A stretch of 64,000 nucleotides of DNA. It comes from Theionarchaea archaeon. Its GTDB lineage: Archaea; Methanobacteriota_B; Thermococci; Methanofastidiosales; SZ-28-30. The stretch covers positions 1 through 64,000 of the forward strand of contig JACVGT010000013.1 in NCBI GenBank assembly GCA_018992685.1, given 5' to 3'. Position 1 is the first letter of the stretch. Each line of letters begins with the position of its first letter. A program made the translations under genes and the position numbers. The notes beneath the pieces are model-generated. The model ran no database searches. It had not been told where the DNA came from and saw only the letters and a program-made list of their open reading frames with translations. This document shows positions 57,322 to 63,641 of this stretch, piece after piece.

Positions 57322-57705
57322 ATGAGCAAAATAGATCAGCTTCTGGATGCTGCATCAGACAAGTTCACAGCCGCTGAGGTCTTGATCAACCAGGAATTCC
57401 ACGAAGATGCTGTTTCAAGATTGTTTTACGGTCTCTTATTCTGTGCCAGAGCCCTTCTGCTGACCAAGGAAGTTTCGACAGAGAATCCTGATGAAATCAT
57501 TGCAGGATTTGAAAGTCAATTCATCAAAAAGGGTGTCATTGACAAGGAACTGGGTTCTCTCATAAAGGATACAAAGAAACTGGCAGAAAAGGCAGATTTT
57601 TCTCCTACCTTCAGCATGCCTGAGGATAAGATGAAAACTATGATGGAGGATGCCCAGTTGTTCATGGAACAGGTGGAAGACGTTATTAGTGAGATAGAGG
57701 AGTAG
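57322..57705 (+). CDS. HEPN-domain protein (orphan, degenerate)
   Basis: AVSRL.Y.....ARALL, F...FIK.G, AEKADF in place of R..ADY. Confidence 0.75.
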   Translation: MSKIDQLLDAASDKFTAAEVLINQEFHEDAVSRLFYGLLFCARALLLTKEVSTENPDEIIAGFESQFIKKGVIDKELGSLIKDTKKLAEKADFSPTFSMPEDKMKTMMEDAQLFMEQVEDVISEIEE

Positions 57706-57825: not shown

Positions 57826-58485
57826 ATGCCCGCAATTACCTGTACATCACTTACAAAAATCTTTGACAAGAATCCGGTGGTGGATGACATCACGTTTGAG
57901 GTTGAGGAGGGTGCCATCGCAGGTATCGTTGGTGACGATGGTGCTGGAAAGACAACACTGCTGAAACTTCTCACTGGACTGCTGAGACCCACATCAGGAA
58001 CATGCACACTCTTTGACACTGATGTTACTCGCAACCCCGCCAGAGGATTGAAAGGAGTGGGGTGTCTCGTTGGGGAGCCTGCATTCTACGAAGAATTCAC
58101 TGCCCAGAAAAACCTGGAACTGTTTGCTGCCTTGGCACAGGTGGACTCAGACGGAGTTACTGATCTCCTTGGCATCACCTTCAAGTCCACCAGAGTTCGA
58201 TATCTCACCCCCGCCATGAAGAAGCTCTTGGGAATCGCTGTTGCGTTTCTGGCAGAGCCCAAGCTGCTCATCCTGGACGAACCGCTTAACCTCAACGCAT
58301 CTGCCCAGGGTCTTGTGAAAAAGCTGCTGAAGGAACAGAAAGAAAAGGGGAACACGATCCTGTTCACCACAGGCATTCCTGCCGACGTGAAGGAGCTGGC
58401 CACCTATGGGGTTGTCCTGAAAGAAGGAAAGGCTGTCTCTCAGGGGGCACCCAAAACCCTTGACTTCAAGGGGGTGAATCCATGA
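57826..58485 (+). CDS. ABC transporter ATP-binding protein (degenerate motifs)
   Basis: GDDGAGKTT and LILDEP present; signature reads LTPAM and H-loop reads TTG. Confidence 0.85.
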   Translation: MPAITCTSLTKIFDKNPVVDDITFEVEEGAIAGIVGDDGAGKTTLLKLLTGLLRPTSGTCTLFDTDVTRNPARGLKGVGCLVGEPAFYEEFTAQKNLELFAALAQVDSDGVTDLLGITFKSTRVRYLTPAMKKLLGIAVAFLAEPKLLILDEPLNLNASAQGLVKKLLKEQKEKGNTILFTTGIPADVKELATYGVVLKEGKAVSQGAPKTLDFKGVNP

Positions 58486-59231
58486 ATGTGTACCGCGTGA
58501 CGAGATTTGAAGTCAGCAAGCTATTCAGGCAGAGAATAGCCCATGCAGGCTTCATCGTTGTCTTTCTTGTGTGCTGCGTATACTGTGTGATAAACTGGAT
58601 GACCCGCCCTGTTGGATCTTACAGTGGAGTCATGATTATTACCGACAACATCAGTTTCCAGAACAGTCTGCTGATTCTGCCGTTTCTGGCCATTCTGGTG
58701 GCAGCCAACTCTGTCAGCGGAGAACTATCTTCAGGAACCCTGCGAACCCTGCTTACCAGACCGGTGAAGCGAGATAATGTGATAGTAGGGAAGTTTCTGG
58801 CCGAATTCTTGTACATGTGCCTGGTTGTGTATGGAATTGCACTGCTCTCCTTTCTGTTTGCAATCAGATGGGGATTTCCCGAGGACTTCATATCCTTCAT
58901 TCCCAGATTGCTTCTGATCTGCCTGGTGTATGTCCTGATTAACATGATATTGGCGGCCTTCACCTTTGTGGTAGCATCTCAGAGCACCAGCATCGCTCTC
59001 ACTGCCTTTGCGTCCTTGGGATTCTACATGATATCAATGCTTGTGGAATTCTTCAACAAGATCCAGACGTATATGTTCCTCAATAACGCCCAGACTCTGT
59101 TCCAAATGCTGATGGGAGGACCATTTGAATTGAGGTCTACCTACTTTTCTGTGGGAGTAATTCTCATCTACACACTGGGTCTCCTGTTAATTGCCTCGGT
59201 GTTATGGGAAAAAAGAGATATCAGGTCCTGA
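58482..59231 (+). CDS. ABC-2 type permease
   Basis: VSGELSSGTLRTLLTRPVKR..VIVGKF; C-terminal KRDI; ATGA overlap with the ATPase. Confidence 0.9.
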   Translation: MNVYRVTRFEVSKLFRQRIAHAGFIVVFLVCCVYCVINWMTRPVGSYSGVMIITDNISFQNSLLILPFLAILVAANSVSGELSSGTLRTLLTRPVKRDNVIVGKFLAEFLYMCLVVYGIALLSFLFAIRWGFPEDFISFIPRLLLICLVYVLINMILAAFTFVVASQSTSIALTAFASLGFYMISMLVEFFNKIQTYMFLNNAQTLFQMLMGGPFELRSTYFSVGVILIYTLGLLLIASVLWEKRDIRS

Positions 59232-59654
59232 ACAATGGTCATTCGTTGCCCATTCTGTATGGAGAGAATGGGCTTTTTTCATCCTCTATTGCTCCAGGAG
59301 CTCCAAGACCATGATCACAGCGAGTAATCACTTTCTGAACGAACACAACTTACCAGCAGAGATAGAAATTCTTCAAATACCCTGAAAATTTTCCCATTAC
59401 CGTCTGTCATCACCCATAAAAAAAGTCAAGAATCTCGCAAGCAGATTTGAACAGTTGTACCATCATGCAAACATTTATATATCGATTTTGAGCTTTATGA
59501 AGTGGAGGAAAAGACGAGAGACGAGATACTGTGTGTTTCCACGGGGTTCATCGGGCCCCCTTGAGGCAAGAAAGCGGTCCAATATGCCCCGGTTATGGTG
59601 GCGTTCTGGTCGTTGAGCCTTTTCTCACAGTATTTCTCTCCAGAGGTGAGAGAG

Positions 59655-60854
59655 ATGAGTTCCATCCTGAATGTACTGCAATGCGTTGACGAGCCCGCCT
59701 GGATGAAGAGTCCGGTAGAAACGCAAGAAAAGATACTTGAGGACATTGTCCACAGAAATAGGAATACTCGATTCGGAAGAGAGTATCTATTTAGAGAGAT
59801 TAGAAGTACAGAAGATTACAGAAAATGCGTTCCTCTTTCTATGTACTGTGATATTGAACCATATGTACAGAGGATGGTGTATGGGGAAAAGGATGCTTTG
59901 GTCATGGAGCAGGCCACAGCATGGATCGAGTCTGTGAGACTCGACAGAAAATCACGGTTGATTCCATACACTCAGGACATGGCTGGTGGATTCAGGGATG
60001 CATATCTGAGGTTGTTTGCCTCCAGAACAGAAGATTGGGCGTACGTTTCGGGAAAGGTGATTGCTGGATTGGAACATCCCATCCACATGGTAGGGGGAAA
60101 TCCAGCAGGAGACATACTTGCTCTGGGAAGCAGCACGCTGAGATCAACGCCAGTCTTGGGAAAGGTAATCACTCCTCGGCTGACAGAATCTGATGCTGAT
60201 TGGGAAAAACGGTGGAAGAAGGCTGCTCAACAGGTTTCAAGACAGAATGTAATTTCTGCTATTGTTGATCCAGTTCTCTTTCTGAAATTCCTGCGGATGA
60301 TTCAATCCAACAGCGGAGTGGCTGACATTCGTCAATTGTGGCCTGATTTCTCCTTGGTAATGACGACAGTAAACACAAGGCCTTTTGAGAACGTGCTTCA
60401 ATCTCTTCTGGGTCATGTGGAGTTCAGGAGGCTATTCTGTACTGATGAGGTTGTCGTAGCCGTCCAGCTGGATGAAAAAGGTGTGGTGCCCTTGCTTGAC
60501 CACTGCTATCTTGAGTTCATTCCTTTGAAGCAGTGGAGAGATATGGAACTTGAAGGAGGAACCTACAGGGAATACGGATTTGACATTGAGACTATCGACA
60601 CTGCTGTTTCAGGAGAAGAATATGTTTTAGTCGTTACTACATCTGGGCTGTACCGGTATATCTCTGGAGACATTGTCACTATGGTTGATAGTCTGCACAT
60701 GGAACCAACTGGGTTCATTGACGAATGGGCAGTTCTTCCTGAACTCGCGCAGCAAATCGTACTACTGAGGGAAGTGGCACGAGACACATCTCGGACAGAA
60801 CATCAGCTGGTGGCTGTGGAATCTGAACCCATGAGATTTCTGTTCAAAATCTGA
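59655..60854 (+). CDS. GH3 (acyl-acid amido synthetase)-like protein, degenerate and truncated
   Basis: QEKIL..I...N.NT.FGREY.F..I....DYR..VPL..Y, LEFIP, GEEY.LV.TT.GLYRY..GDIV; GAGGTG RBS. Confidence 0.75.
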   Translation: MSSILNVLQCVDEPAWMKSPVETQEKILEDIVHRNRNTRFGREYLFREIRSTEDYRKCVPLSMYCDIEPYVQRMVYGEKDALVMEQATAWIESVRLDRKSRLIPYTQDMAGGFRDAYLRLFASRTEDWAYVSGKVIAGLEHPIHMVGGNPAGDILALGSSTLRSTPVLGKVITPRLTESDADWEKRWKKAAQQVSRQNVISAIVDPVLFLKFLRMIQSNSGVADIRQLWPDFSLVMTTVNTRPFENVLQSLLGHVEFRRLFCTDEVVVAVQLDEKGVVPLLDHCYLEFIPLKQWRDMELEGGTYREYGFDIETIDTAVSGEEYVLVVTTSGLYRYISGDIVTMVDSLHMEPTGFIDEWAVLPELAQQIVLLREVARDTSRTEHQLVAVESEPMRFLFKI

Positions 60855-61139
60855 ACCTGGTAGGAGTACGAACCTCGGAGTGTGACATGCAAGGGGAAGG
60901 GGACTGGTTCCATGAGAGACTGTACGGTTCCCGTGAATATGGACACTTTGTGACTGATAGAATCCTCGAAAGAATCCTGTGGTCAATCCCACGATACATG
61001 GACGGTTCAACTTCTGGCTCATGCATTCTCTTTTTCCACAAGATCTGAAGAGAGTTTCATGAATATCGGCTAGTCCGTACCCCTACCTCCACTAGTTCTT
61101 GTGTTCTATGTACAATCTCAGTGAAAGCAATCTGTTCAA

Positions 61140-61240
61140 AAAAGGAATGAAAGAGTGGGATTGAGAACAAGACGAAGGAGGTGAAATCCATGGAAGTGGT
61201 AACTTGTTTTCTTCCCACTCTTTGGAGTTGTTACTCCGCA
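61140..61240 (-). ncRNA. Candidate sRNA copy 1 (hairpin with anti-SD loop); ends approximate
   Basis: 11-bp outer stem (61150-61160/61213-61223) plus inner AACAAG/CTTGTT stem; minus-strand TTTAAAAA box at 61259-61266; U tract downstream. Confidence 0.55.
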
Positions 61241-61469
61241 TATTCTTTGTCATGTCCCTTTTTAAACTTTTGCAGTATTCGATACCCGTCACATCGTACT
61301 GATTTGTGTAGTTTTTACTCTAATCAGGAGGGAGCACAAAATTACCATCCAGAAAAGTGCAACTAGTATTCTTTTATCTGGAAAACATTCGTGAGAAGAA
61401 GGATTGAGAAGAGTGGGATTAAATAAACAAGACGAAGGAGGTGAAATCCATGGAAGTGGTAACTTGTTT
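61166..61469. repeat. 44-bp perfect direct repeat (61166-61209 and 61426-61469), period 260 bp
   Basis: AACAAGACGAAGGAGGTGAAATCCATGGAAGTGGTAACTTGTTT occurs twice, each flanked by AGAGTGGG and CCCACTCT. Confidence 0.97.
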
Positions 61470-61497
61470 ACCCACTCTCCTCAGTGTTTAACTACAA
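61395..61497 (-). ncRNA. Candidate sRNA copy 2 (hairpin with anti-SD loop); ends approximate
   Basis: 13-bp outer stem (61405-61417/61471-61483) plus 8-bp inner stem; minus-strand CTTAAAAA box at 61518-61525; pyrimidine tract downstream. Confidence 0.55.
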
Positions 61498-61720
61498 TGG
61501 CACATTAGTGCCACTCCTTTTTAAGTCTTTGTAATGCTAATGTAATCAAATTTTCGGAATTAAAAAATATGACCTATTTTATGGTTCCAAGTGCACATTA
61601 TTTCTCAATTAGACTTTTTATTTAGATAACTCTATCTCAAAGCGATTTCCCTATTCCTGATTCGCATATTGATCTGTGCAGGCTAATTCATTCCTGACCA
61701 GTACGTGAGATTTACGCATT

Positions 61721-62251
61721 CTATTCCTGGACAAAGTGCCATTCACACCATACATCTCCTGAATGCTCGTCAGGGGGACAGCGCACGCAGACACACGTGA
61801 TATGAGGGTTGATTTCTCTTACAAAATTGGAGAGGTAGTTGTATCTCACCTGTTTGCAGGGGAACTCTGGAAATCCTTTCTTTAACCGAGTTAACTGTGT
61901 CTTGCAATTGAGGATCCTCAGAATGCCTGTACCATTTTCCACGGTGATGATTTTCTCCTGTTGATCAAGTGCCCAGCTCGTGGTCTGCAGAGCTCTCATG
62001 AGAGTCTCAACAGAAGGGTCTTGCAGGTTCAAGATACGCTTGAGGGCTTTTGCTTCAAGAGTTCCCATGGCATTCCACACTTCGGCATCAATTTCTGCAG
62101 CAGCCTCTGTCCCAAACCGGTTCTCAATACCCAGAAAGTACAACCCATCTACTCTCCAGATGTTCCTGTTATTGAACATCATAATCTCAATGAGCTTATC
62201 CCTAGGCAATGCTTCCAACATGTCTCTGTCTTCGTCACTGATGTACGACAT
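61721..62251 (-). CDS. DUF6125-like (V4R/ATC-hydrolase-like fold) Cys-containing protein
   Basis: W.VDGLYFL.IE..FG.E.A..ID..VW, C..Q..R..KG..EFPCK, C..CPPD.H....WCEW.F; GGTGA RBS. Confidence 0.72.
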   Translation of the reverse strand: MSYISDEDRDMLEALPRDKLIEIMMFNNRNIWRVDGLYFLGIENRFGTEAAAEIDAEVWNAMGTLEAKALKRILNLQDPSVETLMRALQTTSWALDQQEKIITVENGTGILRILNCKTQLTRLKKGFPEFPCKQVRYNYLSNFVREINPHITCVCVRCPPDEHSGDVWCEWHFVQE

Positions 62252-62333
62252 TGAGTCACCGAATCTGGCTTCACTCTTCACCATATAAGTGTTACCCTCC
62301 AAACCAGAGTATGAAGGTCGCTCAAAGAGCCAC

Positions 62334-63641
62334 TCACACCCCCCCACAGGCTGTGGCAAGGGTTCTCCATTGTGGAAACCTCTTTGGGTTTTTTGGATAT
62401 CGACTGTAAACAGCCCTTAGGATACCCATCTTGCCGAGAGCACAGGCCAATTTGAAGAGGAGGGAAGGGGTTTTTGCTGCATTAGCGGCTGTGGTAAGGA
62501 TGTCAGTCAACGTAAAGGAGGGTTCTTTTTCCTCCAGCTGAGACAAGACTTCATCAGTGATGACATTCTGCAACAAGGATTGGAGTTCTTTGCTGGTAAG
62601 AGACACCATGAAGTCTCTTAAAGGCAGTGATGATCCAAGAAGCGCACCGTATCTCTGCATGAAATCATAGTTGTACTTCCACAATACCTCCAGAGAGGTG
62701 TCTTTGCTGTGGATGGCCTCTGCTGCCGTTGTAGCTGCCATGTGGCCTGCAGTGAAGGCAGGTGCTATTCCTTCTCCTGTCAAGGGATTCGTGTGCCTGG
62801 CAGCATCACCACAGGCCAAGAGACCTGGAGCCACCATGGAAGGAAGAGAACCTCCAAGGGGGAGAGCACCATAGCCTGCTTGGGTTTTCTCCTTGATTTT
62901 GAATCGTGTGTGTTCGTGGAGCGCCTGAGCCACTGCCTTTCTGAAATGGGTACTGCGCTGTTCCATCCCTCCAGCACCCACGTTCAATTCATAGGTTCCC
63001 TTGGGAAAGAACCAGAAATACCCTGAAGGCACGAAGGAATTGTCAAAAACGATGGTTGCGTATTCCTGAGATATTGCCTCTTCCAGGATGATGTTCTCCT
63101 TATATCCCAATCCGATACGTGATGGGCTGCCGCGCCCACGTCTGAGCTCCCTACTGAGGACAGAGAAAACCCCACTACAATCCATGGTCAATGTCCCAAG
63201 GTAGGACGCATCATGAGTCTTAACACCATGTACTTCATTTTTCCCAACAGACCCCCGTACGACTCCTTGGTGAAGTTCTGCTCCTCTTCTGAGAAGCTCC
63301 TTTACCATGGTCTGCCCAAACTGCCATCTGTCTATAGTGCATAGAGGGTCGGTCACCCGAACGATGCCATGGTCACCGTCCATAAGTCCAGAAAAGGTGC
63401 AGACTTGCAGGCCTTTCAAAGGATAATGATCAACAGAAATCTGAAATTCATTCTTGAGCCATTTCACGATCCTCATGGGCATGAGTTCTCCACAAATCTT
63501 TCTGCCGACAAATTCTCTCCCTTTACGTTCTATGATACAGATGGTGAGATCCTCTCTCAGTGCTGTTAGGCCTGCAGCTGCTCCTGCAATTCCGCAGCCA
63601 ACAATAACGAGATCATAGGGAGCAATCGTCATATCACTCAT
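62334..63641 (-). CDS. Geranylgeranyl reductase-family FAD oxidoreductase (DGGGPL reductase-like)
   Basis: YDLVIVGCGIAG, KICGE, IDR..F, GYFWFFPKG (YxWxFP), GDAA...NPLTGEGI. Confidence 0.87.
   Translation of the reverse strand: MSDMTIAPYDLVIVGCGIAGAAAGLTALREDLTICIIERKGREFVGRKICGELMPMRIVKWLKNEFQISVDHYPLKGLQVCTFSGLMDGDHGIVRVTDPLCTIDRWQFGQTMVKELLRRGAELHQGVVRGSVGKNEVHGVKTHDASYLGTLTMDCSGVFSVLSRELRRGRGSPSRIGLGYKENIILEEAISQEYATIVFDNSFVPSGYFWFFPKGTYELNVGAGGMEQRSTHFRKAVAQALHEHTRFKIKEKTQAGYGALPLGGSLPSMVAPGLLACGDAARHTNPLTGEGIAPAFTAGHMAATTAAEAIHSKDTSLEVLWKYNYDFMQRYGALLGSSLPLRDFMVSLTSKELQSLLQNVITDEVLSQLEEKEPSFTLTDILTTAANAAKTPSLLFKLACALGKMGILRAVYSRYPKNPKRFPQWRTLATACGGV

Follow-up and report, generated by a model that had tools for sequence, protein, structure and literature searches.

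The stretch analysed here, referred to as the window, comprises 64,000 nucleotides (nt) of the Theionarchaea archaeon assembly GCA_018992685.1 (contig JACVGT010000013.1, positions 1 to 64,000), and our subject is a pair of hairpin elements in a gap of 866 bp (60855-61720) between two convergent open reading frames (ORFs), 59595..60854 on the plus and 61721..62359 on the minus strand. An original prediction, made from the letters of the window, had described twin copies with a 44-nt identical core in this gene-poor gap, and had proposed that they are minus-strand small RNAs of an undescribed archaeal family which mask ribosome-binding sites and start codons. The twin hairpins are confirmed, as an exact direct repeat of 44 nt occupies 61166-61209 and 61426-61469 with a spacing of 260 nt. 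They belong to a real and new RNA family that has strong comparative support and first evidence of expression, with the strand, size and promoter that had been predicted for it; the function of the family we infer.

Both copies fold better than chance on either strand, with -37.0 and -30.7 kcal/mol on the plus strand (z -5.0 and -3.0) and -29.0 and -28.0 kcal/mol on the minus strand (z -4.2 and -4.0), compared with 200 shuffles of which none (0/200) folded equally well for either copy or strand. Each fold is the predicted two-tier hairpin, having a large open loop on both strands. The RNA of copy 2 measures 100 nt in the window and 101 nt in the strain seen as RNA, and is composed of a 12-nt 5' tail, an outer stem of 13 bp (61483-61471 with 61417-61405), an inner stem, the open loop, and a 9-nt pyrimidine 3' tail. 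Copy 1 starts with a 5' mini-hairpin, followed by an outer stem (61223-61213 with 61160-61150), the loop, and a T6 run (61143-61138); its ends are predicted, the 5' end (~61236) from the geometry of copy 2 and the 3' end from this T6 run. The minus-strand loop sequence including UCACCUCC, the TATA-like boxes of both copies on the same strand (AAAAGTTTAAAAAGG and AAAGACTTAAAAAGG, Table 1), and the peptide sequences quoted for the plus strand are all as first described. The accompanying claim that the stems differ while pairing is kept did not hold between the two window copies, whose outer stems are nearly identical, and came true once relatives were added.

Copies, stem types and covariation

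Altogether, 60 distinct copies were collected, namely four from this genome (3.03 Mb, 91% complete), five from two same-genus genomes (one with two syntenic copies, the other with three), and the remainder from metagenome contigs. This set was obtained after dropping duplicates and ten plain bacterial gene starts, and several of its members stem from overlapping assemblies and hence are not independent. Besides the two copies in the window, this genome holds one on contig C11 and one cut by the end of contig C1. An exact 22-mer search through one genome per prokaryote species returned members of the genus only, plus one chance bacterial match, an exact 20-mer search of metagenome contigs returned 66 loci, and the viral contigs scanned for the element gave 0 matches. 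The Rfam scan that had been suggested as a check was run with cmscan (Rfam 15) over 60500-62200 on both strands at E values up to 10, and no family matched the elements, as the three matches obtained were at chance level and overlapped neither of them. With a covariance model, firm matches (E up to 3e-8) among 34 genomes of the order were confined to the three genomes of the genus. Seven further matches were marginal (E 6e-5 to 0.01; G001, G003, G004, G013, G017, G025, and this genome on C3), and five of these were inspected, G001:C8 and G000:C3 being left out: the match in G004 is false, as it lies antisense inside cas4, adjoining cas1 (L118 484-1955), and those in G003, G013, G017, and G025 are without the conserved loop. 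Weak BLAST matches in the relatives G018, G025, G041, G043, and G056 likewise turned out to be ordinary gene starts without a hairpin.

The copies fall into stem types that have the loop core UUCCAUGGAUUUCACCUCCUUCG in common. Type A, to which the window copies belong, comprises 24 copies with the outer stem GAGAAGAGUGGGA / UCCCACUCUUCUC, which stand alone with their own promoter. Type B comprises 34 copies, whose outer stem is mostly GCAGAGGGUCUGCA / UGCAGACCCUCUGC with variants such as GCGGGGGGUCC / GGACCCCCCGC, and which are located upstream of winged-helix genes. A third type with the stem GUGGGGAUCUGG / CCAGAUCUCCCAC and a slightly changed loop is represented by two copies, those on C11 and C1 (G000 C11:30947-31066 and C1:16-60; L034, L003), which are found in two paralogous regions that are ~85% alike over >120 nt and contain only short degenerate ORFs and a DNA-methylase fragment. 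UUCCAUGGAUUUCACCUCCUUCG is invariant or nearly so in 54 aligned copies, 20 loop positions having been fixed by the search pattern, and conservation reaches past this pattern on both sides.

In type B taken by itself, pairing holds in 97.6% of 409 cells, and compensatory changes occur in six of 14 pairs, values reached by 0 of 500 shuffles; moreover, a covariance model built from type B alone scores the type A copies at 48-64 bits. In an all-type alignment of 52 copies, which was fitted to the type B-built model, pairing is kept in 95.1% of 680 cells and compensatory changes are seen in 13 of 14 pairs (again 0/500 shuffles), compared with 41-60% pairing in slid controls. RNAalifold on a MAFFT alignment of 54 copies had yielded no more than a 3-bp loop helix, the two stem types being out of register there, and the types were therefore analysed separately and then on the model-based alignment. 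As judged from these alignments, the stem is under selection for pairing. Together with the absent Rfam match, the covariation of the stems argues that this is a real, uncatalogued RNA family of Theionarchaea, in keeping with the undescribed archaeal small-RNA family that had been proposed.

Strand, promoter and environmental RNA

By all sequence indications the RNA strand is the minus strand of the window, because the G.U asymmetry, the promoter box, the T-run, and the same-strand winged-helix genes of type B agree on it. Read on the minus strand, the type B helix has 399 canonical cells out of 409, with 41 G.U, compared with 361 canonical and 3 G.U on the opposite strand; in type A this wobble signal is weaker (10 versus 5 G.U). 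All 24 type A copies have the AAAnnTTTAAAA box 66-77 nt ahead of their loop core, compared with 1/34 in type B, and the 64 kb contain two matches to AAANNYTTAAAAAGG, both of them the window promoters, where 0 are expected. The AAAnnTTTAAAA motif further matches the duplicated ribosomal RNA (rRNA) promoter CGAAACGTTTAAAAG of a same-genus genome, and a T-run follows 26-50 nt past the core in most type A copies. Both the wobble asymmetry (41 versus 3) and the promoter motif bear out the minus-strand reading of the original prediction. As an aside on the rRNA promoters, CGAAACGTTTAAAAG occurs twice upstream of the 16S gene, at a spacing of ~50 nt (L110 3170-3240, minus strand); the two sites look like tandem rRNA promoters and would give a promoter consensus for the genus.

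RNA from exactly these two elements is present in environmental transcriptomes. Two soil metatranscriptome runs of one study contain 11% and 5% of the words of 60900-61700, and the contigs from these runs cover only 61180-61295 and 61391-61507 of the 801 nt compared, with no RNA contig of either run over 60900-61179 or 61508-61700 (runs X3 and X4 had no contigs on the stretch, which carries no weight). One contig on copy 1 runs ~22 nt beyond 61295, these extra 22 nt matching the sequence of a congener, and the left end of copy 1 is not judgeable from the contigs, as the exact 44-nt repeat breaks the 31-mer graph at 61180.

For copy 2, a contig of 131 nt runs from 61469 down to 61396 and continues from 61495 down to 61440, which corresponds to a head-to-tail join of a 101-nt unit. 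The contig ends repeat the same 30 nt, and 131 (101 + 30) is the length expected of a circle in 31-letter words, from which Logan contigs are presumably built; there is no direct repeat in the region able to mimic the 61396|61495 cycle. Of the two joined positions, 61495 lies exactly 22 nt past the TATA box CTTAAAAA and 61396 within a pyrimidine tract 9 nt beyond the stem. This junction places the ends of copy 2 at 61495 and 61396, and the separate units of ~100 nt, each behind its own promoter, are as had been foreseen. Judging by this junction, the RNA may also occur in circular form. RtcB is encoded in the genome, and around 61495/61396 no bulge-helix-bulge with a 4-bp helix between 3-nt bulges was seen by eye, no formal motif search having been made.

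Table 1. Features of the small-RNA locus in the window
Feature	Coordinates	Strand	Evidence or remark
B recognition element (BRE)/TATA-like promoter, copy 2 (AAAGACTTAAAAAGG)	61516..61530	-	TATA CTTAAAAA at 61525-61518; motif matches and congener rRNA promoters
Small RNA copy 2, 100 nt	61396..61495	-	metatranscriptome junction, fold, covariance-model match 59.3 bits
Loop core copy 2, UUCCAUGGAUUUCACCUCCUUCG	61433..61455	-	conserved in 54 aligned copies; mean unpaired probability 0.77
BRE/TATA-like promoter, copy 1 (AAAAGTTTAAAAAGG)	61257..61271	-	TATA TTTAAAAA at 61266-61259
Small RNA copy 1, predicted ~99 nt	61138..61236	-	covariance-model match 51.6 bits; metatranscriptome contig over 61180-61295
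Loop core copy 1	61173..61195	-	same sequence as copy 2, within the 44-nt exact repeat
DUF6125 gene, upstream neighbour of the RNA genes on the same strand	61721..62284	-	Pfam PF19620, E 6e-36
GH3-family gene, converging on the RNA genes	59595..60854	+	Pfam GH3 and GH3_M

Loop, start regions and neighbouring genes

The loop core contains an 8-nt palindrome, UCCAUGGA, the 16S-tail-like UCACCUCC, and a CAU at start-codon distance from the latter. UCACCUCC matches 8/8 nt of the same-genus 16S 3' tail (...GAUCACCUCCA), and its predicted unpaired probability is 0.76. UUCCAUGGA, the 9-nt heart of the loop, also occurs in the same-genus genome G001, 2 nt downstream of where the 16S gene ends (L110 1490-1510, minus strand); there it shares part of its length with the strand pairing with the 5' leader (UGGACUCAAA with UUUGAGUCCA), and is absent at that place in G004 (L109), which represents another family of the order.

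The start of a nearby ABC permease gene had been singled out as a partial match to the loop, but 241 sites, this one included, differ from the central 22-mer by 5 edits or fewer, in a fuzzy search that gave the first and not the best matches and is of little use. Of 1700 Shine-Dalgarno-led starts, 39 have an exact GGAGGTGA, usually placed 4 nt and not 5 ahead of the start codon. Complementarity of the loop to 23S rRNA at ~320-360 (-32 kcal/mol) was set aside as chance, since it concerns a generally conserved 23S stretch and includes large internal loops. An unrelated metagenome contig that matched the search pattern (L081 680-720) has a start region, AAGGAGGTGAAATCCATGG, preceded by its own complement, TTTCACCTCCT, and to judge from these letters this is a classic stem sequestering a Shine-Dalgarno site.

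With respect to neighbouring genes, 14 of the 22 type A copies outside the window are flanked by an ortholog of the DUF6125 gene (70-85% identity), or 16/24 when the window's two are included, and orthologs of the GH3 gene are found beside many type A loci. In type B, 25 of the 34 copies are followed on the same strand by a small HxlR/HTH_45-like winged-helix gene, which is never antisense; the linkage amounts to 23/29 among the type B copies with at least 300 nt of sequence, and to 0/24 in type A, counted with a profile built from ten of those same proteins. Seven type B loci (L049, L066, L067, L075, L078, L082, and L098) have the hairpin right next to the Shine-Dalgarno site of the winged-helix gene, within 10-20 nt of it, and there the loop core is 44-50 nt from the start codon; in some type B loci a TATA box, AAAGTATAAAAAG, lies between hairpin and gene. 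GGAGGUGAAAUG exemplifies the start regions of the linked genes, and that of one type B subgroup, GGAGGUGAAAU, is perfectly complementary to the loop over 11 nt.

Several further observations concern the type B loci and the winged-helix genes. In the interval from hairpin to gene, a further pair of segments, one Shine-Dalgarno-like and the other anti-Shine-Dalgarno-like (CAUGGAGGUGGGGGAG and UUCACCUCCUUUUCCCCCA), occurs in L050, L057, L085, L092, L101, and related type B loci; these segments could pair alternatively with the loop and with the actual Shine-Dalgarno site. Several type B loci have the hairpin between two tandem winged-helix genes. A perfect palindrome, TGTTACACGTGTAACA, stands upstream of the AAAACTATATATAG promoters of several winged-helix paralogs (L134, L136, L137, L138, and L141; same-genus G002) and also near the hairpin loci L036 and L086, and is a likely operator of this regulator family. 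Elsewhere in the window, an ORF at 57322-57705, just upstream of the ABC transporter pair (57826-59231), has by eye a HEPN-like N-terminus.

Discussion

Following from these results, we propose, with roughly even prospects of being right, that the window contains separate minus-strand genes for a structured RNA of ~100 nt, each with its own promoter, whose loop would block the start regions of mRNAs. Each RNA gene would be driven by its own strong archaeal promoter, the 13-bp two-tier hairpin would keep the loop UUCCAUGGAUUUCACCUCCUUCG open, and the loop would pair with the Shine-Dalgarno and start region of an mRNA, by which 30S binding would be blocked. The stand-alone type of the window would act in trans, and the sister type upstream of winged-helix genes in cis or on the neighbouring gene. 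Masking of Shine-Dalgarno site and AUG is a plausible reading of the loop, and the simplest one. As for features of a trans-acting small RNA, the elements have a transcription unit of their own in an intergenic region, as indicated by the promoter box in 24/24 type A copies, the confinement of the RNA contigs, and the gap between convergent genes, and the predicted fold presents the anti-Shine-Dalgarno sequence UCACCUCC in an unpaired loop. Overall, the first interpretation is partly supported.

A number of points weigh against this proposal. The RNA evidence consists of unstranded contigs rather than reads, at a depth of 2-4 and from a single study. One contig of 212 nt passes the 5' end of copy 2 by 12 nt and its 3' end by ~97 nt, consistent with a precursor or with read-through in the direction of copy 1. 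Reverse transcription, or ligation during library preparation, could have produced the head-to-tail junction as an artefact, and a search for an Rnl-type RNA ligase in the 91%-complete genome found none, its two PF09414 matches being DNA ligases. The genome-wide duplex scan returned, besides the four own copies, ordinary Shine-Dalgarno-led starts as the best partners, and the complement of the loop is not the consensus start region of the genome. Start regions of winged-helix genes pair with the loop only slightly better than control starts do, at a mean of -17.6 compared with -15.8 kcal/mol (p 0.013, among non-independent sequences), and the single winged-helix homolog of this genome (C15:125243) as well as the paralogs in G001 and G002 are without a hairpin; their start regions pair moderately with the loop (-14 to -26 kcal/mol). 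The conserved stretch, whose invariance is partly built in by the search pattern, exceeds what pairing with Shine-Dalgarno site and AUG needs, and such long conservation hints at another partner, for example a protein or loop-loop pairing via UCCAUGGA.

These last points lead to an explanation which we consider possible, if unlikely, namely that the RNA is a mimic of the 16S tail acting via a protein or another factor: its loop could bind or titrate a factor recognising the 16S 3' end or the pre-rRNA, or be bound by the winged-helix proteins, or the loops could pair through UCCAUGGA. This would fit with a conserved core (~23 nt plus flanks) longer than masking requires, with the failure of the genome-wide duplex scan to find an extended mRNA target, and with the 8-nt self-complementary stretch in the loop; likewise, UCACCUCC is common to loop and 16S tail, UUCCAUGGA is found directly 3' of the congener's 16S gene, and the promoter resembles rRNA promoters. 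However, the order of the two motifs is reversed between loop and pre-rRNA, and UUCCAUGGA is not beside the 16S gene in another family of the order, so that the match may be chance. Quite unlikely, in our view, is that the hairpin has only a cis role within longer transcripts, such as that of a 3' untranslated region or terminator after DUF6125, or of a 5' leader of winged-helix genes. While the element is located downstream of DUF6125 on the same strand in 16/24 type A copies, one RNA contig extends past both ends of copy 2, and the hairpin abuts a Shine-Dalgarno site in seven type B loci, a conserved promoter-like box stands at a fixed distance in 24/24 type A copies, RNA contig cover is absent from 61508-61700, i.e. 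between DUF6125 and copy 2, the junction contig delimits a discrete 101-nt molecule, and the TATA box AAAGTATAAAAAG separates hairpin and gene in some type B loci.

We give hardly any credence to a functional plus strand, be it a strongly initiated mini-ORF (MEVV...), a leader peptide, or a type I toxin for which the minus-strand RNA would be the antitoxin. A perfect Shine-Dalgarno sequence, AAGGAGGUGA, does precede an ATG by 5 nt in an open loop, and many of the peptides are short and hydrophobic. Yet the complete ORFs, found in 56/60 copies, range from 5 to 58 amino acids in differing frames, with 54 distinct peptides among 60 that have only the loop-encoded MEVV in common; moreover, 41 type B wobble cells turn into A.C mismatches, and the alignments revealed no conserved promoter upstream on the plus strand. 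This alternative, which the original prediction had raised itself, was not borne out, as neither length, frame nor sequence of the ORF is conserved. A DNA-level element, such as a miniature mobile element, a recombination site, or a palindromic operator, also appears most improbable. Several copies per genome (four here), one of them bordering a contig end and two falling among degenerate ORFs, and the palindrome TCCATGGA in the core would be in line with it, but the location is syntenic across lineages (a DUF6125 ortholog beside 16/24 type A copies), the stems covary and have strand-specific wobble pairing, terminal inverted repeats or target duplications were not seen in the alignments, and viral contigs gave 0 matches, the RNA contigs are confined to the elements, and only four copies exist in 3.03 Mb. 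A match to the end of a miniature inverted-repeat transposable element or an insertion sequence, which had been named in advance as speaking against a small-RNA family, is not what the elements present, as they lack the marks of mobile elements. Guide-RNA features were not encountered either, as no Rfam guide-RNA family matched the elements, inspection by eye revealed no RUGAUGA, and the triplet after the stem reads ACU instead of ACA. By these features, the element belongs neither to the guide RNAs nor to the type I toxin-antitoxin pairs or the mobile elements.

Comparable loops are known from other systems. RsaE/RoxS and RNAIII of Firmicutes have C-rich or anti-Shine-Dalgarno loops that pair with the ribosome-binding sites of several mRNAs, by short motifs (UCCC). 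The RNAs described here have a similar pyrimidine-rich anti-Shine-Dalgarno motif in a hairpin loop, but they belong to another domain of life, are without homology to them, and have an 8-nt copy of the 16S tail plus CAU. In RNA thermometers and riboswitch expression platforms, cis-acting leaders sequester the Shine-Dalgarno site. In a comparable manner, the loop in the seven abutting type B loci could pair with the Shine-Dalgarno site of the next gene in the same transcript; in contrast to those leaders, the anti-Shine-Dalgarno sequence is located in the loop and not in the stem, so that the pairing would be a pseudoknot, and the type found in the window has no downstream winged-helix gene (0/24). 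With archaeal circular RNAs, the RNA has in common the head-to-tail junction of a structured molecule of ~100 nt whose ends are held close by a terminal stem, but it differs from circular guide RNAs, as it has neither C/D nor H/ACA boxes nor an Rfam match, and its junction comes from one low-depth contig. The twin RNAs would work most like sRNA41 and sRNA154 of Methanosarcina mazei, which a published review describes as intergenic archaeal small RNAs masking ribosome-binding sites, sRNA41 being proposed to cover several sites within polycistronic mRNAs (PMC5867862). Both systems consist of independent archaeal small-RNA genes whose loops have anti-ribosome-binding-site sequence, with translational repression as the proposed effect. 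In contrast to the M. mazei RNAs, the conserved stretch of the twin RNAs also spans the start codon and ~10 further nt, the genes in the window are tandem twins, and their sister type is tied to winged-helix regulator genes.

A bolder extension, which we hold to be improbable, would see in the RNA a possibly circular, strongly expressed mimic of the 16S tail and the initiator anticodon CAU, serving as a general decoy for Shine-Dalgarno-led starts or for factors that bind the 16S tail, with sister copies beside winged-helix regulators, and as one case of a wider, as yet undescribed archaeal class of 16S-tail-mimic hairpins across several uncultured lineages. Among the literature matches listed for Theionarchaea and for archaeal anti-Shine-Dalgarno small RNAs, none presents such an RNA in its title or the start of its abstract.

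To date, archaeal regulatory RNAs are poorly known, and the circular RNAs of archaea are so far mostly guide RNAs and processing intermediates. The new family offers covariation of its stems, a defined promoter, ends mapped by environmental RNA, and a genomic link to one family of small regulators, and with these features the control of translation initiation by RNA can be tested concretely in archaea. If the junction reflects a true circle, a regulatory RNA would be added to the circular RNAs of archaea.

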